From Candidatus Omnitrophota bacterium (GTDB lineage Bacteria > Omnitrophota > Gorgyraeia > Gygaellales > Profunditerraquicolaceae), in contig JBDRAV010000002.1 in assembly GCA_043823435.1 (NCBI GenBank), positions 61,755 to 125,754 on the forward strand: a DNA stretch of 64,000 nt, given 5' to 3'. The notes under the pieces were generated by a model. It saw only the letters and a list, made by a program, of their open reading frames with translations. It was not told the origin of the DNA and did no database searches. Numbering within the stretch: the first letter of the stretch is position 1; each line of letters opens with the position of its first letter. The translations under genes and the position numbers were made by a program. Of the stretch, positions 6,446 through 52,197 are shown piece after piece.

Positions 6446-7431
6446 TCATATTGGTTTTATTCAGCATGTTTCTGCATCTATCCTTGCGTAGTAGGTTAGA
6501 GGGGCGGATAGTCAGCGTGCCTGTTTTTAACCATGCTAAGGGAGAATACGACAGGCTGCTTGCGCATAACGATGAACTTAAGGCCGCTAATCAGGACCTG
6601 CAGGTGATTCTTGAAGGTATCATGGCGCTTTACGATATAACAAAACAGATCTGCAAGACCCTGGAGATAGATAAGGTCTTTGGAAACTTCAAGAGCGAGA
6701 TGAACAAATACATCAGGTCAGGCGATTGCCAATTTCTCAAGGGAGAGGTAGACATATCTTTTTATAAAGATAAAGCTTACGCGATAATCCCGCTAAACAT
6801 AAACGATAAGCTTGTGGGTTATCTGGTAGCTGACGGGATAAGTCGGGAGGACAAGGAAAGGTTCCATATACTATCCCAGCAATTTCTTCTTGGGGTTAAA
6901 AGGGCAATACTTTATCAGGATGTGCAGGGGTTGGCTATTATAGACAGCCTGACCAATATCTTTAACCGCCGCCATTACATGGAGAGGTTCAAGGAGGAGA
7001 TAGAACGCTCAAGGAAGTCCAAATATAAATTCTGCTGTCTGATGGTAGACATAGATTATTTCGAAAGTTTTAATGACCGCTACGGCCATATAGTAGGAGA
7101 TGCCATATTAAGGGAACTCTCTAAGGCCATACAGGAGAATATCAGGCAGATTGACCTGATTTGCAGGTATGGGGGAGAAGAGTTTTCCCTTATCTTGAGC
7201 GAGACGGATAAAGAGGCGGCCAAATTTGCAGCAGAACGTATACGTTTGGCCGTACAGGACAGGCGCATACGCGTATACGACGAAGAATTAAAGGTCACGG
7301 TGAGTATCGGCATTTCTGCTTATCCTGATGACGGCAAAGATATGGTAAAGCTTATCGATGCCGCGGATTCGGCTCTATACCGGGCAAAGCAGGAAGGCAG
7401 AAACAGGGCTTTTATCTATGGAGCCAAGTAA
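6433..7431 (+). CDS. GGDEF-domain diguanylate cyclase (second tandem copy)
   Basis: RYGGEEFSLIL GGDEF motif and a C-terminal KQEGRNR like the upstream paralog; overlaps upstream gene by 13 nt. Confidence 0.8.
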   Translation: MLSLIILVLFSMFLHLSLRSRLEGRIVSVPVFNHAKGEYDRLLAHNDELKAANQDLQVILEGIMALYDITKQICKTLEIDKVFGNFKSEMNKYIRSGDCQFLKGEVDISFYKDKAYAIIPLNINDKLVGYLVADGISREDKERFHILSQQFLLGVKRAILYQDVQGLAIIDSLTNIFNRRHYMERFKEEIERSRKSKYKFCCLMVDIDYFESFNDRYGHIVGDAILRELSKAIQENIRQIDLICRYGGEEFSLILSETDKEAAKFAAERIRLAVQDRRIRVYDEELKVTVSIGISAYPDDGKDMVKLIDAADSALYRAKQEGRNRAFIYGAK

Positions 7432-7434
7432 TAA

Positions 7435-7510
7435 ATAGGGACAGCGACTATTTTTCTTATTCAAAGATAGAAAATAGTCGCTGTCCCTATAATATTGTCC
7501 CTATAATATT
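7435..7510. promoter_or_regulatory. 20-bp perfect inverted repeat (ATAGGGACAGCGACTATTTT / AAAATAGTCGCTGTCCCTAT) with 16-nt loop, followed by tandem GTCCCTATAATATT x2 (two TATAAT boxes); terminator-like hairpin and/or operator upstream of glk
   Basis: Direct reading: 7435-7454 is the exact reverse complement of 7471-7490; the 14-mer GTCCCTATAATATT occurs at 7483-7496 and 7497-7510. Confidence 0.5.
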
Positions 7511-7549
7511 TATTGCAATTGAGGCATCTTTACGATAAAATAAGCGCTT

Positions 7550-8476
7550 ATGGCGAAGAAATTTATCATAGCTATTGATTTAGGCGGGACGAATTTAAAG
7601 ATCGCACTCCTTGATACCCGCTGCCGGATTAAAGACAAGATCATTCTAAGTACGCATCGGTTCAGTAATAAAGAGATGCTTATTTCGGCAATCTCGGATT
7701 CCGTAGATAAGATTATAAAGGATAATAAGTTAAGTAAGCGGGATATCCTTGGTATCGGCGTGGGGTTAGCCGGATTGATAGATTATGAAAAAGGGGTAGT
7801 CCATTTCCTGCCTAATATCCCCGGATGGAAAGAAGTAGCGCTTAAGCGCATTCTTGAAAGAAGGCTTGGGTTGCCGGTATTACTGGATAACGATGTTAAC
7901 TTGATGTCGCTGGCAGAATATAAAATGGGAGCAGCGAAGGGTTCTAAGAATGCAATATGTATTACCCTGGGTACGGGCGTAGGGGCGGGTATTATCATTA
8001 ACGGTAGCCTTTACCGCGGGTCATCTAACGCAGCCGGGGAAATAGGGCATATGCCTATTAATGAAAAAGGGCCCCGTTGTAATTGCGGCGGCAGCGCATG
8101 CCTTGAGGATTATATCGGCAATAGCATAGTCTTAAAAGAGGCAAAGGGCGTCTTCAGGCGGGATATCTCTCTTGAGGAGTTAAGCTGTTTGGCGAAGAGG
8201 GGAGACCGCAGGGCCCGGGCAATATGGCTAAAAGTAGCCGGAAGATTATCGGTTGCGCTTGTGGGCGTAACAAACCTGCTTAATCCCGACCGTATAGTTA
8301 TCGGCGGAGGAGTGGCAGGCGCGGGGAAAATATTATTTAAAAATATAAGAAAGATTATCATGCAGCGGGCAATGAGCGTGCAGGCAGGGAAGGTGAAAGT
8401 CTATAAGGCGAAACTGGGAAATAATGCGGGTTTAATCGGGGCAGCCATACTCGTGAAGCATGAGGCTGGAAGATGA
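7550..8476 (+). CDS. glk: ROK-family glucokinase (no N-terminal HTH, so kinase rather than repressor)
   Basis: [13 protein letters not shown] ATPase N-terminus and the ROK zinc motif CNCGGSAC; length 308 aa. Confidence 0.85.
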
Positions 8477-9117: not shown

Positions 9118-11324
9118 TGAATATCAACCAGTTAAAGAAACCTTTAATTTTACTGATTGCCGGTTTTTGGTTACTGGCTATTATTACTTATGCCCAGGGC
9201 CAAAAGGATGAACCCATTATAATTAACGGGGATACGGTTGAATATCTGACCGAAGGCAAGGAGGTTACCGCTACAGGCAATGTCTCGGTAATCTATAAAG
9301 GCGCAAAGTTAAGCTGCCGTAAACTTACCATCAATACCCAGACCAAGGATGCCGAAGCCGAAGGCGAAGTGAGGCTGGAGGATAAAAAGGGTGTAATCGA
9401 AGGGGAAAAGGCAAAATATAATTTTCAGACCAAGACCGGGGTTATCATCGATGCCGAATTCAGGGCCAACCCTTATTTTGGCTGGTCGGAAGATGTCGAG
9501 AAGGTGAGCGAAAGCGAATTTATCGCCAGGCGCGGATATATGACCACCTGTGATTACGACAGGCCGCATTACCGCATAAAATCAGAGAAGATGGATATCT
9601 TCCCGGATGACAAGGTGCAGACCAAGGACGATGTTTTCTATGTAGGCCGCGTCCCCGTAATGTATATCCCTCAATACAACCAGAGCCTTAAGGACCCGTT
9701 TATGCATGTGCAGTTAGTGCCCGGTAAGAGCAAGGATTGGGGTATATATATGCTCAGCGCCTGGAGATACGATATTACCGACGATGTCAAGGGGAGGATT
9801 TATTTTGATTACCGTTCAAAGAAGGGGGTAGCTGAAGGGTTCGGGACAAACTACTCGACCTCTGAATTCGGCAGGGGGGATTTCAAGTATTATTATACGC
9901 AGGAGAGGGACCATAACCTTGATAAGAGCAATAGGGCTCCCAGGATATTCCAAAGGTATTTCATACGCTGGCGCCATAAAGCCGATATAGACGAACAGAC
10001 GAATTTCGTGGGCGAATATTACAAGATAACTGATTCTAAAATGGCGATTTATGGTTCAGAATACAGTTTCTTAAAAGATTATTTCTTACGCGAATACGAA
10101 AAAGCTGCCCAACCCCCATCTTATCTTTTATTCCACCATAGTTTCGCTTATTCGAGCCTGGACTTTCTTTTAGAGAAGCGCACTAACCGCTGGTATGACC
10201 CCGGATATCTGGAAAGCCTGCCGGAGATAAAATATAGCTTATCTTCTTTTCAACTCGGGGAGAGCCCATTTTACTTCGATAATAATTCTTCTTTTGGAAA
10301 TTACAATAAGAAGAATACCAGTACCATGACTCCCACTTTGAATAATACCAGCACATCAACGACCGATACGCACGTAAACAGGCTTGATACCAGCAATAAA
10401 TTATCATTGCCTATGAGAATAGCTTTTGTCAGCTTTACGCCGTACGTGATGAACCGGGAGACCTTTTATGACAAGAGGGCTTATGGCTCTAGCATGGCCC
10501 CGCGTACTGTTTTTTATAGCGGAGCTGACCTGAGCACTAAATTTTACCGTATATTTAACGTCCATACCAATCTCCTTGGTTTAGACCTGAACGGGTTGAG
10601 GCATATAATTACCCCTACCGTAGGTTACGCATTCAATCATGAGCCCTCTATTTCTAACGGCGAGTTAAGGCAGATAGACGAAGTGGAGCAGATTGCAAGA
10701 AATAACAGTGTTACCCTGGGGGTAACCAACAAACTGCAGACAAAGAGGAATAATCAGAGCGTAGATATCGCTAATCTAGATCTAACCACCAGTTATTCCC
10801 TTAAGCCTAAAAGCGGGACAAAGAGAGGAAGCAGCCTTTCGGACTTTCTTATCAAGCTGGAGCTCCTGCCGTATTCCTGGATGAGCATATATTCCGATGC
10901 TACTTATGTTCATTCCGGGCCGCGCGATAACGTGAATTACAACCGTTTTGCCAATGTGAACTATGGCCTTAATTTTAATTTTGGAGAAGAGCGCTCTTTC
11001 TCCGTCGGGCAGCGTTATCAGTTAAAAGGCGGGAATGAGATAACTTATGATCTGGAATGGCGCCTGAACCCTAAGTGGAAATTATCTGTTTACCAGAGAT
11101 ACAACAGGGGGCATGATCCGACCTTAATGAGGGGGTTGAGGGAGCAGGAGTATACCGTATCCCGGGATCTGCACTGCTGGGTTTGGGATATTACTTATAA
11201 CGTGAAGAGAGGGCACGGAGAAGCAATCTGGTTTATATTCAGGTTAAAGGCTTTCCCTGAAGTGGAATTTGAGTTTAATCAGAGTTACCATGAGCGTAAG
11301 CCGGGCTCTCAGTCCGGTCCATAA
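9117..11324 (+). CDS. lptD: LPS-assembly protein LptD-like (OstA N-terminal domain plus large C-terminal putative beta-barrel)
   Basis: Signal peptide; an OstA/LptA-like N-terminal beta-jellyroll segment (GNVSVIYKGAKLSCRKLTINTQTKDAEAEGEVRLEDKKGVIEGEKAKYNFQTKTGVI); 735 aa and rich in aromatic/Gly beta-strand patterns. Confidence 0.6.
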   Translation: MNINQLKKPLILLIAGFWLLAIITYAQGQKDEPIIINGDTVEYLTEGKEVTATGNVSVIYKGAKLSCRKLTINTQTKDAEAEGEVRLEDKKGVIEGEKAKYNFQTKTGVIIDAEFRANPYFGWSEDVEKVSESEFIARRGYMTTCDYDRPHYRIKSEKMDIFPDDKVQTKDDVFYVGRVPVMYIPQYNQSLKDPFMHVQLVPGKSKDWGIYMLSAWRYDITDDVKGRIYFDYRSKKGVAEGFGTNYSTSEFGRGDFKYYYTQERDHNLDKSNRAPRIFQRYFIRWRHKADIDEQTNFVGEYYKITDSKMAIYGSEYSFLKDYFLREYEKAAQPPSYLLFHHSFAYSSLDFLLEKRTNRWYDPGYLESLPEIKYSLSSFQLGESPFYFDNNSSFGNYNKKNTSTMTPTLNNTSTSTTDTHVNRLDTSNKLSLPMRIAFVSFTPYVMNRETFYDKRAYGSSMAPRTVFYSGADLSTKFYRIFNVHTNLLGLDLNGLRHIITPTVGYAFNHEPSISNGELRQIDEVEQIARNNSVTLGVTNKLQTKRNNQSVDIANLDLTTSYSLKPKSGTKRGSSLSDFLIKLELLPYSWMSIYSDATYVHSGPRDNVNYNRFANVNYGLNFNFGEERSFSVGQRYQLKGGNEITYDLEWRLNPKWKLSVYQRYNRGHDPTLMRGLREQEYTVSRDLHCWVWDITYNVKRGHGEAIWFIFRLKAFPEVEFEFNQSYHERKPGSQSGP

Positions 11325-22804: not shown

Positions 22805-22918
22805 GGACACTTCTCGTCCCAATCGGAGAAGTGTCCCCTAGATACAAATTATTATTAAGGAGGGACACTTCTCCGATTAGCTAAAGAAACGTTCCCCGAT
22901 TGGGTGAAGAAGTGTCCC
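22805..22918. repeat. Cluster of four alternating-orientation copies of a palindromic element (GGGACACTTCTCCGATTGG / CCAATCGGAGAAGTGTCCCC) forming two hairpins between proA and nadD
   Basis: 22805-22815 GGACACTTCTC is the reverse complement of 22826-22836; 22862-22878 is the reverse complement of 22821-22837; a degenerate fourth copy lies at 22894-22918. Confidence 0.6.
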
Positions 22919-22925
22919 TGAGGGT

Positions 22926-23492
22926 ATGAAGATAGGGGTATTGGGCGGTACTTTTAATCCTATACATATCGGCCATCTTATCCTTGCCGAGGAAGTAAGG
23001 GAGAAGCTGAGTCTTGATAAGGTTATACTTGTACCTGCGAACCTCCCGCCGCATAAGGATAATTCCGATATTGCTCCTGCGGGCGCAAGGTTGGACATGA
23101 TAAGGCTGGCTATAAAAGGGAACAGGCATTTTTCATCATCCGAACTGGAGATAAAAAGAGACGGGCGCTCCTATACCATAGATACCATTAATGAATTTAA
23201 GAAGATATACGCCAACGATGAGTTGTATTTTATTATCGGCTCGGACCTCCTCAAATACCTGGCTGAATGGAAGGACCTGCAGGATATCATTAAAATGGTA
23301 AGGTTTGTAGCTGCTACACGCCCTGGTTACCCTTTGGAAAAGATACCTTCCTATATAGCCACGGTTGCGATAAGGGCGGTTGATATCTCCGGTTTTGAGA
23401 TCAGGAAGGCGATAAAGAAAAATAAATCATTCCAGTACCTGGTACCGGAGAGGGTATTTAATTATATTAATAAAAAGGGGCTTTACCGATGA
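22926..23492 (+). CDS. nadD: Nicotinate-nucleotide adenylyltransferase
   Basis: MKIGVLGGTFNPIHIGH (the HxGH nucleotidyltransferase motif), ~190 aa. Confidence 0.9.
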   Translation: MKIGVLGGTFNPIHIGHLILAEEVREKLSLDKVILVPANLPPHKDNSDIAPAGARLDMIRLAIKGNRHFSSSELEIKRDGRSYTIDTINEFKKIYANDELYFIIGSDLLKYLAEWKDLQDIIKMVRFVAATRPGYPLEKIPSYIATVAIRAVDISGFEIRKAIKKNKSFQYLVPERVFNYINKKGLYR

Positions 23493-27914: not shown

Positions 27915-27992
27915 GGATACTTCTTAACCCAATCCCTGCCTGCCGGCAGGCAGGGAGGGACACTTCTTAATCCAATCGGGGAAGTGTCCCCC
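27914..27992. repeat. Second locus of the same palindromic element family plus a perfect 22-bp palindrome (CCCTGCCTGCCGGCAGGCAGGG) immediately upstream of tyrS
   Basis: 27957-27966 GGGACACTTC is the reverse complement of 27982-27991; CCAATCGGGGAAGTGTCCCC (27973-27992) matches 22819-22838 at 19 of 20 positions; the palindrome at 27934-27955 is a perfect 11+11. Confidence 0.6.
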
Positions 27993-29221: not shown

Positions 29222-30475
29222 ATGATCAGGTATATAAAAAGAATAGATACATTTGGCAGGAACATAATCCTTGTTTTTCTGGGTTCATCATTAGTGAACG
29301 TATTTAATCTTCTTTTTCAGCTTTTGCTAGCCCACCGTATGTCCAGCGTAGATTTTGCCGGCTTTAGCTCCTTGCTTGCCATATTCACGCTTATATCCGC
29401 TCCGCTGATAACCCTGCAGACAGCGGTAACCAAATATACTGCCGAGTTCAGCGCCCAGAAAAATATCAGGAAGATCAGGGCTTTATTATCCAGTCTTCTT
29501 AGAATGATATTACCTCTTGCCCTTGTAACTTTCATCATCTTCTATTTTCTCTCTTTCGGTATCATGGACAGATTAAAGATCCCTTCCGTAATTGCGGGGT
29601 ATATTCTAGCCTTATTGATCACATCTTGCTGGATCACGCCGGTTTTGACAGGCGCATTGCAGGGCCTTGAATTATTCAAATGGCTGATGTTGCAGTCGGT
29701 AATCAGCGGGGCGGCTAAATTGGTATTCGGAGTTATATTTATCGGTATGGGTTTTAATATCGCGGGGGGGCTGGGCGCGTTCCTGGCGGCGATACTGATC
29801 GGGATACTCATTTCAGTTTTCCCCTTAAAAACCATGCTTTCATTCAGGAAGAAAGAGGAATCCGTAAATTTAAAAGAATTCTTTATCTATCTTGCTCCGG
29901 TAGCTACGGGCTCTTTTTGTTTTATCGCCCTGGTAAGTCTCGATATGGTATTGGTAAAATACCTTTTTACGCCGGTTGATGCGGGTTTTTATTCTCTGGC
30001 ACAAATAGTCGGAAAGATCTTTTTATTTTTCCCGGGAGCGATAACCATTGTAATGTTCCCCAGGACCGCAGGGTTAAAGGCAAAAAACATGTCTACCGGA
30101 TCCACCCTGATGAGGTCGCTTCTATACGCCTCTGTCTTATGCGTTATCGCGAATATCGCATATAATCTTTTCCCATCTTTTATCCTGAAGCTCCTTACCG
30201 GAAAAATATACGGGGAATCCGTTGCGCTGGGCAGACTCTTCGGGGTATCGATGAGCTTTTTTGCTCTCTCCTTTATTTTAATAAATTATTTTCTTTCGGT
30301 AAAAGACCTGCGTTTTATGAAATACCTGGTTCTATCCACGTTATTGGAGCCATTAGCTATAGTTTTGTTCCATAGAAATCTTATGTACGTGCAATTGATA
30401 CTCTGCGTGAATTCGGCTTTACTCTTTTTCACCCATTTATTACTGGCTTACAAAAGAGAGGCTGTCCCCGGATAA
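29222..30475 (+). CDS. Polysaccharide biosynthesis protein / lipid-linked oligosaccharide flippase (Wzx-like, MOP superfamily)
   Basis: About 12 predicted TM helices, 417 aa, Wzx-like hydrophobicity pattern; first gene of the glycan locus. Confidence 0.65.
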   Translation: MIRYIKRIDTFGRNIILVFLGSSLVNVFNLLFQLLLAHRMSSVDFAGFSSLLAIFTLISAPLITLQTAVTKYTAEFSAQKNIRKIRALLSSLLRMILPLALVTFIIFYFLSFGIMDRLKIPSVIAGYILALLITSCWITPVLTGALQGLELFKWLMLQSVISGAAKLVFGVIFIGMGFNIAGGLGAFLAAILIGILISVFPLKTMLSFRKKEESVNLKEFFIYLAPVATGSFCFIALVSLDMVLVKYLFTPVDAGFYSLAQIVGKIFLFFPGAITIVMFPRTAGLKAKNMSTGSTLMRSLLYASVLCVIANIAYNLFPSFILKLLTGKIYGESVALGRLFGVSMSFFALSFILINYFLSVKDLRFMKYLVLSTLLEPLAIVLFHRNLMYVQLILCVNSALLFFTHLLLAYKREAVPG

Positions 30476-30487
30476 AAGGTATAGGAC

Positions 30488-31270
30488 ATGAAAGAAAAGA
30501 TATCTATAGTTATGCCGGCATACAACGAGGGGGGACATATTATATCCAGCATAGAGGAGACGGTAGGAGCATTTAACGGTTTCGGTTATCCCTGGGAGCT
30601 CGTCGTGATGGATGACGGGTCAACGGACGATACTTATGAAAAAGCGAACTCCCTGGCCTCAAAGTATCCTCAGCTTGTAGTCAAAAGGAACCCCGTGAAT
30701 ACCGGTAAAGGCAGAGCGATCAAGAAAGCCCTGCATTATATCACCGGAGATTATACCCTCTTTTTAGATGCGGATATGGACCTGCATCCTGTCCAGGTCC
30801 AGACTCTCTTTGATATCATGGGCCTGGATAAAGCGGATATAGTCATTGGTTCCAAGCTGCATCCGAATTCTAGGGTGAATTATCCCCTACAGCGTAAGGT
30901 AATTAGTTTCTTGTATTATTTACTGGTAAAGATCCTCTTTAACCTGCCGTGTCACGATACGCAGACAGGACTAAAGTTATTTAAGACCGAAGTATTAAGG
31001 AATGTGTTGCCCCGGGTCTTGGTAAAAAAGTTCGCCTTTGATTTAGAAGTTTTGGTAAACGCGCATCATTTAGGATACAAGATTGTGGAAGCGCCTATAA
31101 TCCTGAAGCCTCAGAGGTCTTACGGCCGTATCGGGCCTACAGCGCTTATCGCTACGGGGTGGGACACCCTGGCAATATTTTACAGGATGCATATAGCGAA
31201 ATATTATGACCGTATCGATTATCATCGCCGTAAAAACCTGGCAAAAGAATTTAGAAGAGTGCGTCGCTAA
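30488..31270 (+). CDS. Family 2 glycosyltransferase, polyprenyl-phosphate sugar synthase-like (Dpm1/GtrB/ArnC-type)
   Basis: SIVMPAYNEGGHI, VVMDDGSTDDT, DAD motif (LDADMDLHP); 260 aa. Confidence 0.75.
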   Translation: MKEKISIVMPAYNEGGHIISSIEETVGAFNGFGYPWELVVMDDGSTDDTYEKANSLASKYPQLVVKRNPVNTGKGRAIKKALHYITGDYTLFLDADMDLHPVQVQTLFDIMGLDKADIVIGSKLHPNSRVNYPLQRKVISFLYYLLVKILFNLPCHDTQTGLKLFKTEVLRNVLPRVLVKKFAFDLEVLVNAHHLGYKIVEAPIILKPQRSYGRIGPTALIATGWDTLAIFYRMHIAKYYDRIDYHRRKNLAKEFRRVRR

Positions 31271-32198
31271 ATGCCGGGAACTGGATTATCCTGATTTTGA
31301 GATCATCGTCTTACCGGATACCGAAAAGGGACTGTCCCCGCAGATGCTGAACCAATTAGAAGCCAAGGGGACTGTCCCTATAAAGGTTATCGCCACTGGT
31401 CCAGTAAGCCCGGCGAAAAAGAGGGATATGGCCGTTAGTTATGCCAAAGGGGAGATACTCGCGTTTATCGATGATGATGCTTATCCCGGGGAGGACTGGC
31501 TTAAAAACGCAATCGTTAATTTCAACGACCCGGAAACGGCGGTTGTGGGCGGCCCTGCGATAACGCCGGTAAGCGACAGCCTGAGGCAGAAAGCCAGCGG
31601 TATGGTCTATTCATCAATTCTGGTCAGCGGGGAATACGTTTATAGATATATACCCGGAAGGAGAAAGGAAGTGGACGATTACCCCAGCTCTAATTTCTTG
31701 GTCCGTAAGTCAACGATGCAGCAATTGGGGGGTTTTAACACAAATTTCTGGCCGGGAGAGGACACAAAATTATGCCTTGAGATAACCAGGGAACTGGGCA
31801 AGAAGATAATTTACGACCCGCAGGCCGTCGTTTACCACCACCGCCGGCCTTTATTCCTGGCACACGCAAGGCAGATAGCCAGCTACGCGCTTCACCGCGG
31901 ATATTTTGTCAAACGCTACCCCGGGACCTCCCTGAGACCGGCTTATTTTATCCCGACATTATTTTTATTCGGCATATTCCTGGGAGCGGCTTTATCGGTA
32001 TTCTTTGCTCCTTTCAGGATAGACTATATCCTGGGATTGATTTTATATCTTTCCCTTGTTTTGCTATCCAGTATCCCCAGAGGCTTACGTTTCATCCCGT
32101 ACGTATTCTGCGGAATAGTTTTGACCCATATCACTTACGGTCTATATTTCTTAAAAGGATTGATCTCGGGTAAACTCAAAGAAGAGGAAAGGGCATGA
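31206..32198 (+). CDS. Family 2 glycosyltransferase with C-terminal transmembrane helices (true start may be downstream of the 65-nt overlap)
   Basis: IIIAVKT..., DDD (FIDDDAY), C-terminal multi-TM region. Confidence 0.7.
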   Translation: MTVSIIIAVKTWQKNLEECVAKCRELDYPDFEIIVLPDTEKGLSPQMLNQLEAKGTVPIKVIATGPVSPAKKRDMAVSYAKGEILAFIDDDAYPGEDWLKNAIVNFNDPETAVVGGPAITPVSDSLRQKASGMVYSSILVSGEYVYRYIPGRRKEVDDYPSSNFLVRKSTMQQLGGFNTNFWPGEDTKLCLEITRELGKKIIYDPQAVVYHHRRPLFLAHARQIASYALHRGYFVKRYPGTSLRPAYFIPTLFLFGIFLGAALSVFFAPFRIDYILGLILYLSLVLLSSIPRGLRFIPYVFCGIVLTHITYGLYFLKGLISGKLKEEERA

Positions 32199-33769
32199 AG
32201 GTAATTATCTCTTATCCGCCTTTAAACAGCAGCGACGGCTATCCTACCCTGGGGCAGAACCGCCAGTTCCAATTCTTTAAAGAGCCGACCTACATATATC
32301 CGGTCATCCCCGCAACCGCGGCCACTCTCCTTGAGGGCGCAGGGCATCAGGTTATCTGGAATGATTGTATCGCGCAGGGATGGGATTACGGGCAGTTCCT
32401 TGAATTTATAAAAACAGAGAAACCGGAGTTGATCGCTTTTGAAACAAAGACTCCGGTAGTCAAGCAGCACTGGAAAATAATTAATGATATAAAGGGACTG
32501 TTCCCCACAGGAGGTGGAGTACCAAACCATCAGATAGGTTTGGGTGCCTACGCAGAAACCAAAGGGACTCTTCCTGTGGTTGTCCTCTTCGGCGACCACG
32601 TGACCGCCCTACCCGAGGAATCATTTCAGAACAGCCTGGTTGATTTTGTGCTTACCGGCGGCGATTACGATTTTCTTTTATTGAATTTATGTAACTTTCT
32701 TGCTATGAAGGGTCTGTCCCCGAAGGGGACTGACCCTGAAGTTAGAACCAAGAGGACTGTCCCTGTAGATATTGAACTCGAACCGGGAATCTATTACCGC
32801 GAGAACGGCCAGATTAAAAATACGGGCGTTTTCCAACTTGGCCATGACCTGGATTCTCTGCCGTTTATCGACCGTAACCTTACAGACTGGCAATCTTACG
32901 CCTACAAAAACGGAAACTACAAACGGACTCCAGGCACATATATTATGAGCGGCAGGGATTGCTGGTGGGGGAGTTGTACTTTCTGTTCCTGGCCGCAGTT
33001 GTATCCACGGTTTAGAAGGCGCAACACAGAAAATGTCCTGGAGGAGATCGGGCGGCTGATCCAGGAATGCGGAGTTCGCGAGATAATGGATGACACGGGT
33101 ACGTTTCCCGCGGGCGAATGGTTAAGGGATTTCTGCTGCGGGATGATTAAGCGCGGTTATAATAAGAAAATATTTTTTGACTGCAATATGCGTTTCGGCG
33201 CATTATCCGCAGAAGACTTCTCTTTGATGAAAAAGGCAAATTTCCGTTTACTCCTCTTTGGCCTTGAATCAGCTAATCAAAATACTCTCGATAGGCTCAA
33301 AAAAAACCTGAAAGCGGAGAAGATCGTAGAAGACTGTCGTCTGGCTACTAAAGCAGGATTATACCCGCATATTACAATTATGTTCGGCTACCCTTGGGAA
33401 ACCTATGATGATGCGCTGAAGACGGTCAAGCTGGGTAGGTGGTTGTTGAGGAAGGGGTATGCCTATACCATGCAGGCGACAGTAGCCATACCATACCCGG
33501 GCACCCAGCTTTTTGATGAGTGTAGGCGTGAGGGGCTGCTCAATACCCTGGATTGGGATGACTATGATATGAAATTACCGGTGATGAAGACACGGATCGG
33601 GGATGATAAGATCATGGATCTGGTCCAGAGCATGTACAGGGCATCTTTTCATCCGGAATTTATATTGAGAAAGATCTTGTCCTTAAGAGATATAGATGAC
33701 CTGAAATATTATTTGCGCGCAGCAAAAAAAGTGGCCGGCCATATCTTTGACTTTAAACATAAAACTTAG
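32195..33769 (+). CDS. B12-binding-domain radical SAM protein
   Basis: N-terminal cobalamin-binding-like domain; Cys cluster CWWGSCTFC; radical SAM core; 524 aa. Confidence 0.75.
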   Translation: MKVIISYPPLNSSDGYPTLGQNRQFQFFKEPTYIYPVIPATAATLLEGAGHQVIWNDCIAQGWDYGQFLEFIKTEKPELIAFETKTPVVKQHWKIINDIKGLFPTGGGVPNHQIGLGAYAETKGTLPVVVLFGDHVTALPEESFQNSLVDFVLTGGDYDFLLLNLCNFLAMKGLSPKGTDPEVRTKRTVPVDIELEPGIYYRENGQIKNTGVFQLGHDLDSLPFIDRNLTDWQSYAYKNGNYKRTPGTYIMSGRDCWWGSCTFCSWPQLYPRFRRRNTENVLEEIGRLIQECGVREIMDDTGTFPAGEWLRDFCCGMIKRGYNKKIFFDCNMRFGALSAEDFSLMKKANFRLLLFGLESANQNTLDRLKKNLKAEKIVEDCRLATKAGLYPHITIMFGYPWETYDDALKTVKLGRWLLRKGYAYTMQATVAIPYPGTQLFDECRREGLLNTLDWDDYDMKLPVMKTRIGDDKIMDLVQSMYRASFHPEFILRKILSLRDIDDLKYYLRAAKKVAGHIFDFKHKT

Positions 33770-51051: not shown

Positions 51052-52197
51052 ATGATACAGGCACACGGCGGAAAGCTGGTTAACAGGGTTTTATCCAAAG
51101 AGGATGTATCGCAGATAATCTCACGTTCCAGGTATCTTATGCATTTGAGGGTTGACCATGACACCCTGTTGGATTTAGAGAATATTGCGCTAGGTGTATA
51201 CAGCCCCTTAAAAGGATTTATGGCTGAGGATGAATTCAAGAGCGTGGTATTAAGAAGACGCCTGTCGGATGGGCTGCCTTGGACTATACCCATTGTATTG
51301 CCTGTTAGCAAGGCAGAAGCTAAGAAGCTTTCGCGTTCCGAGATATTGCTCTGTGACCAGGGTGGCCTCCCGATAGGCATTATCAAGCCAGGGGCCCCTT
51401 ACACCATACATAGGGCCAGGGCGGTAAAGCACATATTCGGAACAACCAGCATGAAACACCCCGGGGTGCATAAATTCTATCAGGGATCTGATATATTCCT
51501 GGGTGGCGAGATCTCGCTGATCCGCAAAAATAAATATCCTTTTTATGATTTTAACCTGGAGCCCGCCAAAACCAGGGAGTTGATCCGTAAGAAGAAGTGG
51601 AAGACGATAGCGGGGTTTCAGACCCGTAATATCCCGCACCGGGCGCATGAATTCCTGCAAAAGATAGGCCTCTCGGTGGTAGACGGTATCCTTATCCATC
51701 CTATTATCGGATGGAAGAAAAAAGGGGATTTTAACCCGGAGGTGATCATAAAGGCGTACCAGATACTCATCGAACACTACTATCCGCGTGACCGAGTGAT
51801 ATTCTCAGGGCTTGCTACGGCGATGAGGTATGCAGGCCCGCTGGAAGCGGTCTTCCACGCCATTATACGCAAGAATTTTGGATGTACCCACTTTATTGTA
51901 GGCAGGGACCACGCAGGGGTGGGAGGGTTTTACGATAAATATGCCGCGCACCGCATATTTGATAAGTTTCCCGATTTAGGGATAGTCCCCATGCTCTTAA
52001 ACGGCCCTTATTATTGCAAAAAGTGCCTGAGCGTGGTAAGCGACAAGATATGCCCGCATCGCGATACGCACAATATCGAGATAAGCGGTACGCTCATCCG
52101 CCGCATGATCTCCCGGGGAGAACGCATACCGGATGAATATCTGCGCGAAGAGGTCGGAGAGTTTATCTATAAGCATAAAGACAGGTGTTTTATCTGA
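51052..52197 (+). CDS. sat: Sulfate adenylyltransferase (ATP sulfurylase, homo-oligomeric type)
   Basis: QTRNIPHRAHEF and VGRDHAGVG signature motifs plus N-terminal PUA-like domain; 381 aa. Confidence 0.9.
   Translation: MIQAHGGKLVNRVLSKEDVSQIISRSRYLMHLRVDHDTLLDLENIALGVYSPLKGFMAEDEFKSVVLRRRLSDGLPWTIPIVLPVSKAEAKKLSRSEILLCDQGGLPIGIIKPGAPYTIHRARAVKHIFGTTSMKHPGVHKFYQGSDIFLGGEISLIRKNKYPFYDFNLEPAKTRELIRKKKWKTIAGFQTRNIPHRAHEFLQKIGLSVVDGILIHPIIGWKKKGDFNPEVIIKAYQILIEHYYPRDRVIFSGLATAMRYAGPLEAVFHAIIRKNFGCTHFIVGRDHAGVGGFYDKYAAHRIFDKFPDLGIVPMLLNGPYYCKKCLSVVSDKICPHRDTHNIEISGTLIRRMISRGERIPDEYLREEVGEFIYKHKDRCFI

Follow-up and report, generated by a model that had tools for sequence, protein, structure and literature searches.

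The locus described here raises a simple question: why does one palindromic 11-mer, GGGACTGTCCC, recur within two adjacent genes of a Candidatus Omnitrophota bacterium? The genes, which encode a family-2 glycosyltransferase (GT2) and a B12-binding-type radical SAM protein (rSAM), lie in a stretch of 64,000 nucleotides (nt) of contig JBDRAV010000002.1, here called the window. We consider it probable that the seven recurring strings are the arms of small GC-rich palindromic repeats akin to repetitive extragenic palindromes (REPs) and their inverted doublets (REPINs), carried in frame in the manner of Rickettsia palindromic elements (RPEs), with a mode of spread that we infer. These units have colonized the flippase-GT2-GT2-radical SAM cluster in one Candidatus Omnitrophota lineage. 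They nest in one another, their copy number differs between close strains, and their arms are held constant at synonymous sites while loops and host genes diverge.

Exact copies of GGGACTGTCCC were found at 31328-31338 and 31368-31378, whereas none occurred in 100 of 100 shuffles of the 64-kb window. With at most one mismatch to GGGACNGTCCC, the window yielded seven matches against 1.27 ± 0.99 expected, a number that no shuffle reached. Six of these fall in 31328-32763, where a two-mismatch copy at 32564 brings the local copies to seven. The only match of this quality in the 62.5 kb beyond the 1.45-kb stretch, at 51979, is at chance level, and no exact copy is present there; the excess is therefore local rather than window-wide. 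The first-pass annotation of this DNA had reported at least seven copies in 1.45 kb, and the searches against shuffles bear this out. Its positions for the exact copies (31328 and 31368) were also correct, whereas its near-copies were off by 2-4 nt: those given at 32496, 32567, 32708, 32722, and 32750 begin at 32494, 32564, 32710, 32726, and 32753, respectively.

The copies occupy two codon phases in the window, as had been claimed from the start. Left arms begin at codon position 3 (AAG GGA CTG TCC CCN, K G L S P; present as K-GLSP and K-GLFP) and right arms at codon position 1 (GGG ACT GTC CCT, G T V P; present as GTVP, GTLP, GTDP, and RTVP). The seven strings resolve into the arms of two types of repeat unit, a 51-nt doublet, GGGACTGTCCCC-27 nt-GGGGACTGTCCC, and a 27-nt hairpin, GGGTCTGTCCCC-GAA-GGGGACTGACCC (Table 1). 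Element A, the intact doublet in GT2, has a predicted RNA fold of -25.8 kcal/mol (z = -4.5; z = -3.8 as DNA), and its loop resembles that of the rSAM copy in a relative (L002, below). Element C, the intact 27-nt hairpin, folds at -22.6 kcal/mol (z = -5.0; z = -6.2 as DNA), with a stem of 12 positions and a central T.T (U.U) mismatch. Element B is decayed: its arms no longer pair with each other in the RNA fold, and codon alignment shows its loop to be enlarged by ~30 nt (10 codons) that are unique to the window. The orphan arm, as the orthologous sites of relatives show, is what remains of an outer 51-nt-type unit around element C, with the left arm lost in the window. The copies have 5′ flanks of AAAG, CAAG, TAAA, TGAA, and CGAA; units have A-rich sequence at their left border and T(A/G) at their right, with no consistent target-site duplication, and spacings between copies are irregular (16, 27, 40, and 70 nt, among others).

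Table 1. Genes and repeat units of the GT2-rSAM region, in window coordinates.
Feature	Position	Strand	Description
Possible decayed arm (tentative)	30456..30468	+	GAGAGGCTGTCCC; three-mismatch match at the 3′ end of the flippase gene
GT2 gene	31206..32198	+	Family-2 glycosyltransferase, 330 aa; Pfam Glycos_transf_2, E = 4.8e-18; hosts element A
Element A, intact 51-nt unit	31328..31378	+	In GT2; encodes GLSPQMLNQLEAKGTVP, residues about 42-58
Element A, left arm	31328..31339		GGGACTGTCCCC
Element A, loop	31340..31366		27 nt
Element A, right arm	31367..31378		GGGGACTGTCCC
rSAM gene	32195..33769	+	B12-binding-type radical SAM, 524 aa; Pfam Radical_SAM; carries elements B and C plus the orphan arm
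Element B, decayed 51-nt-type unit	32494..32574	+	In rSAM loop 1; mutated arms
Element B, left arm	32494..32505		GGGACTGTTCCC
Element B, right arm	32563..32574		AGGGACTCTTCC
Element C, intact 27-nt hairpin	32710..32736	+	GGGTCTGTCCCC-GAA-GGGGACTGACCC; encodes GLSPKGTDP
Orphan right arm	32752..32763	+	GAGGACTGTCCC; in rSAM; encodes RTVP

Two familiar kinds of structure were ruled out on this anatomy. A CRISPR array is incompatible with the irregular spacings, with copies inside intact open reading frames (ORFs), and with arms that are inverted partners, and an intrinsic terminator with the lack of a T-run after the hairpin. As a separate observation on element B, the extra 10 codons of rSAM loop 1 hold a small hairpin of their own (ACCAAACC...GGTTTGG, 32521-32546), and an outer pairing, CACAGGA/TCCTGTG, spans the decayed unit (32506-32578). 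This window-only hairpin may be a further small palindromic insert nested in the older element.

Comparison with relatives shows how the units are distributed. Loci (L-numbers) syntenic with the window were those whose DNA was fetched through rSAM homologues, namely L001, L002/L003, and L004/L005. GT2 orthologues were found in L001, L002, and L004, and an exact look-up of the window's GT2 protein matched no record. We counted 23 arms in L001, 6 in L002/L003, and 25 in L004/L005, nearly all within a block of ~4 kb comprising flippase, two GT2, rSAM, and hypothetical genes. Beyond the block, L001 has none (~17 kb of flanks), L002 a single match at chance level, and L004 a hairpin and a decayed left arm, three arms in all, ~3 kb downstream. 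In each syntenic locus GGGACTGTCCC stands far ahead of all other 11-mers, with exact copies numbering 17, 6, and 8 over ~20 kb apiece. The L001 position orthologous to the possible decayed arm at 30456-30468 (7971-8023) bears three arms. Copies in relatives occur in three codon phases (GLSP, GTVP, and DCP), in intergenic spacers, and in C-terminal extensions.

The units account for length differences among host proteins. Homologues of the rSAM protein, all from Candidatus Omnitrophota, are 65-78% identical and 482-571 aa long; their length differences fall in two loops and at the C terminus. The loops are the sites of the window units. At these three places, about half of the aligned homologues hold either segments of the KGLSP...KGTVP type or their reverse-strand counterparts, GQSP and GDSP. 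Loop 1 has 4-7 residues in distant orthologues vs 25-35 in the clade of the window. The GT2 ORF of L001 is 401 aa long, against 330 aa in the window, because of three in-frame inserts that include an 82-nt composite present twice. At the site of element A, the L002 GT2 gene lacks an arm-bearing unit, has a loop ~18 residues shorter, and holds an unrelated short GC-rich hairpin instead; the L001 insert there is larger. Across 80 metagenome loci of rSAM orthologues, the word lies within or abuts the rSAM gene in only five, all closer relatives, and six further loci have isolated flanking matches only; more than 70 distant orthologues are without units. In one homologue (P0089), a separate insert of ~50 residues at loop 1 (alignment columns ~150-202) reads ..IPAQAGIQRGYDRMDARFHGHDK... 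and may stem from another repeat family that exploits this permissive site.

Several features of the copies mark them as discrete inserted units. The 51-nt copies in three different genes have common arms and ~70% of the loop in common, and the 27-nt loop keeps its length, and in part its sequence, across at least 10 copies. Identical 27-nt hairpins stand at no fewer than seven non-homologous sites in four genomes, among the matches listed here and in the wider scan described below; exact copies of element C lie at 10525 in L001 and at 9941, 10522, 11603, 11692, and 15040 in L004, with another in L018 (among the matches listed). Nesting is seen in rSAM loop 2, where L001 (10504-10593) and L004 (10498-10575) keep a left arm, a nested hairpin, and a right arm, and the window retains the nested hairpin and outer right arm only. 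Finally, the near-identical strains L004 and L005, whose rSAM proteins are the same, are distinguished by a block of 89 nt with a copy of the hairpin at either end.

This 89-nt polymorphism bears on whether the repeats are kept to generate variation, with recombination or slippage adding or removing segments in surface-glycan enzymes at a contingency locus of the phase- or antigenic-variation kind. Hairpins bound the indel in strains that have the same rSAM protein, arm number differs at the same loops among homologues, and polysaccharide-biosynthesis loci, to which this cluster belongs, are a class that is often variable. The indel, however, lies after the stop codon and changes no protein, all intragenic variants keep frame with no on/off switching seen, and indels mediated by repeats are to be expected wherever a repeat family occurs; we therefore regard a contingency role as quite improbable. 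The suggestion in the first-pass annotation of recombination or phase-variation hotspots thus holds as regards structural polymorphism, while we saw no sign of gene conversion between glycosyltransferase paralogues or of adaptive phase variation.

What is conserved in the arms is the nucleotide string. In columns of identical amino acid with four-fold or greater codon degeneracy, the same codon was used in 82-95% of arm columns vs 26-50% for the rest of the gene, a difference that held in each of the six pairwise comparisons between species, and orthologous 51-nt units have invariant arms and diverged loops. Together with the two phases in the window, the three in relatives, and the intergenic copies, this upholds the original proposal that the conserved entity is DNA and not peptide; a single-frame KG[LT]xP repeat, named there as the competing explanation, is contradicted by the several phases and intergenic copies. 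We accordingly give almost no credence to an uptake-signal-like genome-wide word or to a KG[LT]xP peptide repeat under protein-level selection. KGLSP and KGTVP peptides do recur in homologues, and a type IV pilin is encoded in the window according to the first-pass annotation. Against these stand the three reading phases, both orientations, copies outside genes, and fixed synonymous sites, which rule out the peptide repeat, and, for uptake words, the absence of any additional copy from 62 kb of the window and from the relatives' flanks (~17 kb in L001).

Beyond the constraint on single arms, the arms pair with each other. The common variant GGGTCTGTCCCC/GGGGACTGACCC carries A->T in the left arm and T->A in the right, so that arm self-symmetry is lost and inter-arm pairing is kept. 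Of 10 independent matches with that right arm, from unrelated taxa and among the matches listed, nine likewise compensate for the A-T to T-A exchange at stem pair 4. Since the arms lose their own symmetry yet pair together, an inter-arm hairpin is favored over two sites for a dimeric protein. The 11-13-mer palindromes had been put forward as such sites, which might belong to an operator, a nucleoid protein, or a centromere-like array. Each consensus arm is indeed a 6-1-6 palindrome, the 13-mer recurs in many phyla, with some tandem arrays of period 20-28 (among the matches listed), and doublets are commoner in viral contigs than matched palindromes. Besides the loss of symmetry in the frequent variant, though, the sites entered genes as insertions and not by codon drift, most orthologous clusters are without them, and no regulator gene is associated. 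We consider protein-binding sites of this kind highly improbable.

Strong predicted hairpins are also what would be expected if the units were functional cis-acting RNA elements, tuning expression of flippase, GT2, and rSAM through processing, stability, or translation pausing, with an RNA-binding factor or RNase reading the sequence. A T centre lies on the sense strand in ~94% of copies, the arms are constant at synonymous sites, copies are concentrated in one operon, and in relatives they stand between cistrons and at stop codons. Moreover, GTAG-tagged Omnitrophota copies always lie between co-oriented genes, upstream of ACGACAAGATAAG and a Shine-Dalgarno sequence (among the matches listed), and work on REPs has put forward RNA roles and remarked on G:T pairing (PMC3733652). 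The strand bias, on the other hand, is inseparable from replication direction: the + strand carries all genic-looking long ORFs of the window (1-64000), and GC skew stays positive through all 32 two-kb bins, so the whole window is probably co-oriented with replication, and the directions of transcription and replication are therefore confounded. Most orthologous clusters, more than 70, work without units, copy number and position vary between close strains, nested and decayed copies resemble insertion debris, and there is no excess of sense-strand G:U-compatible changes (16 vs 15). No Rfam family was matched either: neither 7800-12200 of L001 (E up to 1) nor seven loci (gathering score) gave a credible family, the only matches being an unrelated c-di-GMP riboswitch and tRNAs. 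As a full explanation this is unlikely, though an RNA-level role for the operon may exist, possibly alongside selfish spread.

How the units are tolerated within genes is suggested by their reading frames. Both unit lengths, 27 and 51 nt, can be divided by 3. For intragenic 51-nt copies the GLSP...KGTV phase is the only open one, with stops usually present in the other sense phases, and copies between genes or at gene ends hold stops even in the GLSP...KGTV phase. In L004, the rSAM stop codon comes from a hairpin whose phase 0 reads ...GGG GAC TGA. The window, L001, L002, and L004 have intact ORFs that bear 0-9 arms each. An AlphaFold2 model of the window rSAM, moderate in quality (mean pLDDT 62.7), shows coil for residues 102-127 and 175-199, with pLDDT <50 over 106-124 and 175-190, and places each insert stretch between a helix and the strand that follows in an N-terminal Rossmann-like domain. 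The intragenic copies thus fall in loops that are predicted to be disordered.

These features are consistent with the following course of events. The units would be non-autonomous copies that spread as single-stranded hairpins, and their likeliest mobilizer would be an HUH Y1 transposase of the REP-associated tyrosine transposase (RAYT) type whose gene lies in another part of the genome. Units would be gained and lost through local recombination between copies, and selection would keep only those insertions that leave the frame open and land in disordered surface loops. Effects on mRNA or on protein loops would be secondary.

We then considered the palindrome beyond these loci. Scanned for CTGTCCCC-N3-33-GGGGACTGWCCC, a collection with a single genome for each species gave at least 119 stretches; ~67 matches are expected in the whole collection under uniform composition, and part of the matches may therefore be due to chance or to independent hairpins. 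The left arm is complete (GGGA or GGGT before CTG) in nearly all of the matches listed, although these bases were unspecified in the pattern. By record title, the matches listed include ~18 stretches from Omnitrophota and ~16 from Planctomycetota, along with others from Kiritimatiellia, Actinomycetota, Acidobacteriota, Bacillota, Prevotella, and Pseudomonadota. Viral contigs gave six matches to the doublet vs 0, 0, and 1 for three composition-matched palindromes, and the exact 27-nt hairpin was not found in them. As an observation in its own right, the 13-mer GGGGACTGTCCCC forms tandem arrays with a period of 20-28 nt, mostly not a multiple of 3, in L007, L023, L026, L033, L037, L068, and L072 (among the matches listed), hosted respectively by Paratractidigestivibacter, Conexibacter, a metagenome-assembled genome (MAG) of Acidobacteriota, Candidatus Kuenenia, and MAGs of Solirubrobacteraceae, Lachnospiraceae, and Thermoleophilia.

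Some of the intergenic copies carry the GTAG tag (L013, L018, L054, L058, L073, and L036, among the matches listed). Tagged hairpins lie between co-oriented housekeeping genes in several Omnitrophota and one Planctomycetales MAG, and on their 3′ side is the conserved word ACGACAAGATAAG, followed by a Shine-Dalgarno sequence. In the window, the flank words of other Omnitrophota (CACGACAAGATAAG and TTGCCAGTAGGG) occur at chance level only. Separately, we note that a whole module, ..GTTGCCA-GTAG-GGACTGTCCCC..loop..GGGGACTGTCCC-ACGACAAGATAAGCGTTG..GGGAG..ATG, is conserved in intergenic DNA of L013, L018, L054, L058, and L073, from several Omnitrophota and one Planctomycetales MAG. Judged by eye from N-terminal translations, the genes downstream of it are rplA, argG, argH, plsX, and one resembling ymdB; the module may represent a REP whose flanks are conserved, a site of processing, or a promoter context.

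Transposase genes were sought with a hidden Markov model (HMM) built from RAYT homologues and run on all ORFs of the window and of all loci. In the Eubacterium MAG L086, a gene matches Pfam Y1_Tnp and scores 79.6 bits against NCBIfam REP_Tyr_transpos, just below the 80-bit cut-off; extended repeats with GGGGACNGTCCCC lie on both sides, the classical layout of a RAYT gene between its own REPs. In the Kiritimatiellae locus L029, a partial Y1_Tnp ORF lies ~170 nt from a seven-unit array. The Planctomycetota MAG locus L036, part of whose record is masked, has a RAYT-like Y1 transposase sequence (1058-2258) inside fabZ, with the N-terminal and C-terminal parts of FabZ on either side; GTAG-tagged dimers lie 1.1 kb away, and the immediate flanks of the RAYT-like sequence are another repeat.

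Such cases allow a broader proposal, in which GGGGAC(T)GTCCCC is the core of a cross-phylum repeat class read by a horizontally spreading HUH enzyme or another conserved factor, and the copies of this Omnitrophota lineage are preferentially targeted to one glycan-biosynthesis operon, remodeling enzyme loops and intercistronic RNA. Its basis is the presence of doublets in Omnitrophota, Planctomycetota, Kiritimatiellota, Actinomycetota, Acidobacteriota, Bacillota, Bacteroidota, and Pseudomonadota (among the matches listed), their excess over composition-matched palindromes, and two cases beside Y1 transposase genes. We hold the proposal to be decidedly unlikely. If true, it would mean targeted rather than random colonization, and a 13-mer core recurring in many phyla, twice beside Y1 transposase genes, would merit a dedicated survey should it hold.

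Returning to the interpretation of the window copies as REP-like units, we compared them with known systems. Di Nocera et al. 2013 (PMC3733652) described REPs tagged with GTAG or CGTC from eight phyla, the PVC group among them; the stems of these REPs show frequent G:T pairing, and the preferred location is between co-oriented ORFs (PMC3733652). The units here resemble REP/REPIN-RAYT systems in that the 27-nt hairpin is a short GC-rich imperfect palindrome forming a stem-loop with an internal mismatch, the 51-nt unit is an inverted doublet folding into a larger hairpin, and units cluster, as in bacterial interspersed mosaic elements (BIMEs). Further likenesses are the GTAG-tagged copies of the palindrome in other Omnitrophota and in Planctomycetota (among the matches listed) and the palindromes flanking the RAYT-like gene of the Eubacterium MAG. 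They differ in that the window copies have no 5′ GTAG/CGTC tag, in their location (within the 64 kb of the window, all intragenic in one gene cluster; in relatives, intragenic and intergenic within ~4 kb), in the absence of a RAYT from the window and of any linked to the palindrome in Omnitrophota, and in unit size (27 and 51 nt, vs ~100 nt for a typical REPIN). Membership in the REP/RAYT class is thus partial: the hairpin and doublet forms are present, and the tag is absent from the window.

The closest precedent for carriage within genes comes from intragenic REPs. In-frame REP singles and dimers that encode 20-30 residues have been described, most numerous in Opitutus terrae and Rickettsia conorii, and those of R. 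conorii correspond to RPE-4 and RPE-6 (PMC3733652). As in those families, the Omnitrophota units are inserted in unrelated housekeeping or enzyme genes without breaking the frame, adding ~10-30 residues; they occur as singles, dimers, and multiple inserts per ORF, also at ORF ends; and the host proteins, with their reading frames intact, are presumably still functional. As with RPEs, inserts are absent from orthologues and lie in permissive loop regions, according to the alignments and the moderate AlphaFold2 model. Unlike them, the units are from a different phylum, with no sequence similarity established to RPEs or O. terrae REPs; classical RPE-1 measures 100-150 bp and belongs to Rickettsiales, whereas these units measure 27 and 51 nt in Candidatus Omnitrophota, with copies concentrated in one operon instead of scattered over the genome, as far as 64 kb shows. 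The Omnitrophota units are therefore analogues of RPE families, not members. [quoted passage not shown] HIP1 (the highly iterated palindrome of cyanobacteria) and DNA uptake sequences are also short palindromic or fixed words found in coding DNA regardless of phase; those occur ~1 per kb genome-wide, whereas the word here is absent from the 62 kb outside the cluster.

Several observations weigh against reading the units as mobile REP-like repeats. The window copies are untagged, and all seven are intragenic and within 1.45 kb, whereas classical REPs are dispersed and extragenic; the 23 copies of L001, all within 4 kb, would equally fit a local function or purely local duplication. Neither a target-site duplication nor a clean pair of empty and filled sites with defined ends was found. 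The HMM search detected no Y1 transposase among the ORFs of the 64-kb window, and in none of the Omnitrophota sequences (window and loci fetched) was one linked to the palindrome. Other Planctomycetota RAYT genes are flanked by different palindromes, and the palindrome is not tied to one RAYT clade. With regard to pairing, the arm changes of L126 (GGGACTCTCCCC) disrupt it, and G:T and A:C mismatches number 16 and 15, a comparison in which overlapping arms are put out of register by nearest-partner pairing. As the arms scarcely vary, covariation has too little power, and it singles out neither strand, and neither RNA nor DNA.

Other inverted repeats are present in the window. A second, intergenic hairpin family, GGGACACTTCT-(loop AATCCAATCGG)-GAAGTGTCCC, occurs at 22805-22919, upstream of a gene at 22926, and at 27957-27990, between the genes for S1 and tyrosyl-tRNA synthetase. 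The latter copy is conserved in three relatives (L001 5432-5520, L002 5778-5842, and L004 5499-5604); several stem positions change yet still pair, many through sense-strand G:T/G:U pairs, and the loop is nearly invariant. By its pattern of conservation, this family looks like a conserved leader or intercistronic RNA structure. The first-pass annotation had related the 11-mer to intergenic GGGACAC...GTGTCCC hairpins: they do have in common the GGGAC/GTCCC stem ends and an AGCTAAA-type loop word, and kinship itself is plausible only. Beside the 27957-27990 hairpin lies a perfect 22-nt palindrome, CCCTGCCTGCCGGCAGGCAGGG (27934-27955), which is absent from the three relatives and whose arm resembles the GGCAGGC...GCCTGCC REPs flanking RAYT genes in Planctomycetota (L205 and L206). 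A 20-bp perfect inverted repeat (ATAGGGACAGCGACTATTTT / AAAATAGTCGCTGTCCCTAT) lies in 7435-7550, directly after the stop of an ORF ending at 7431; it is followed by the promoter-like TTGCAA-17 nt-TAAAAT and then, just before the next ATG, by ACGATAAAATAAGCG, which resembles ACGACAAGATAAGCG, a word 3′ of GTAG-tagged hairpins in other Omnitrophota. In the relatives, an epimerase/GDP-mannose dehydratase gene encodes 668 aa in L002 (12898-14904) and L003 (3829-5835) vs ~327 aa in L001 and L004, and a faint LAGLIDADG_3 match in the middle of the longer protein suggests an intein.

Full-text literature searches found no description of REP-type repeats in Omnitrophota, and searches for the motif strings and peptide words returned unrelated primers only. 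As REP-like repeats, the units are an established type of selfish DNA, now seen in a further phylum. Palindromic repeats carried in frame illustrate how hairpin DNA of a selfish kind can extend and remodel enzymes yet not destroy them, a phenomenon documented mainly in Rickettsia and, among PVC bacteria, in Opitutus, and extended here to uncultured Omnitrophota. The anatomy is unusually clean, with two unit sizes that are multiples of three, nesting, a single open phase, and a hairpin-supplied stop codon. For genome analysis, the units inflate and fragment gene calls and create KGLSP/KGTVP-type low-complexity segments in predicted proteins, and they are likely break points in metagenome assemblies.

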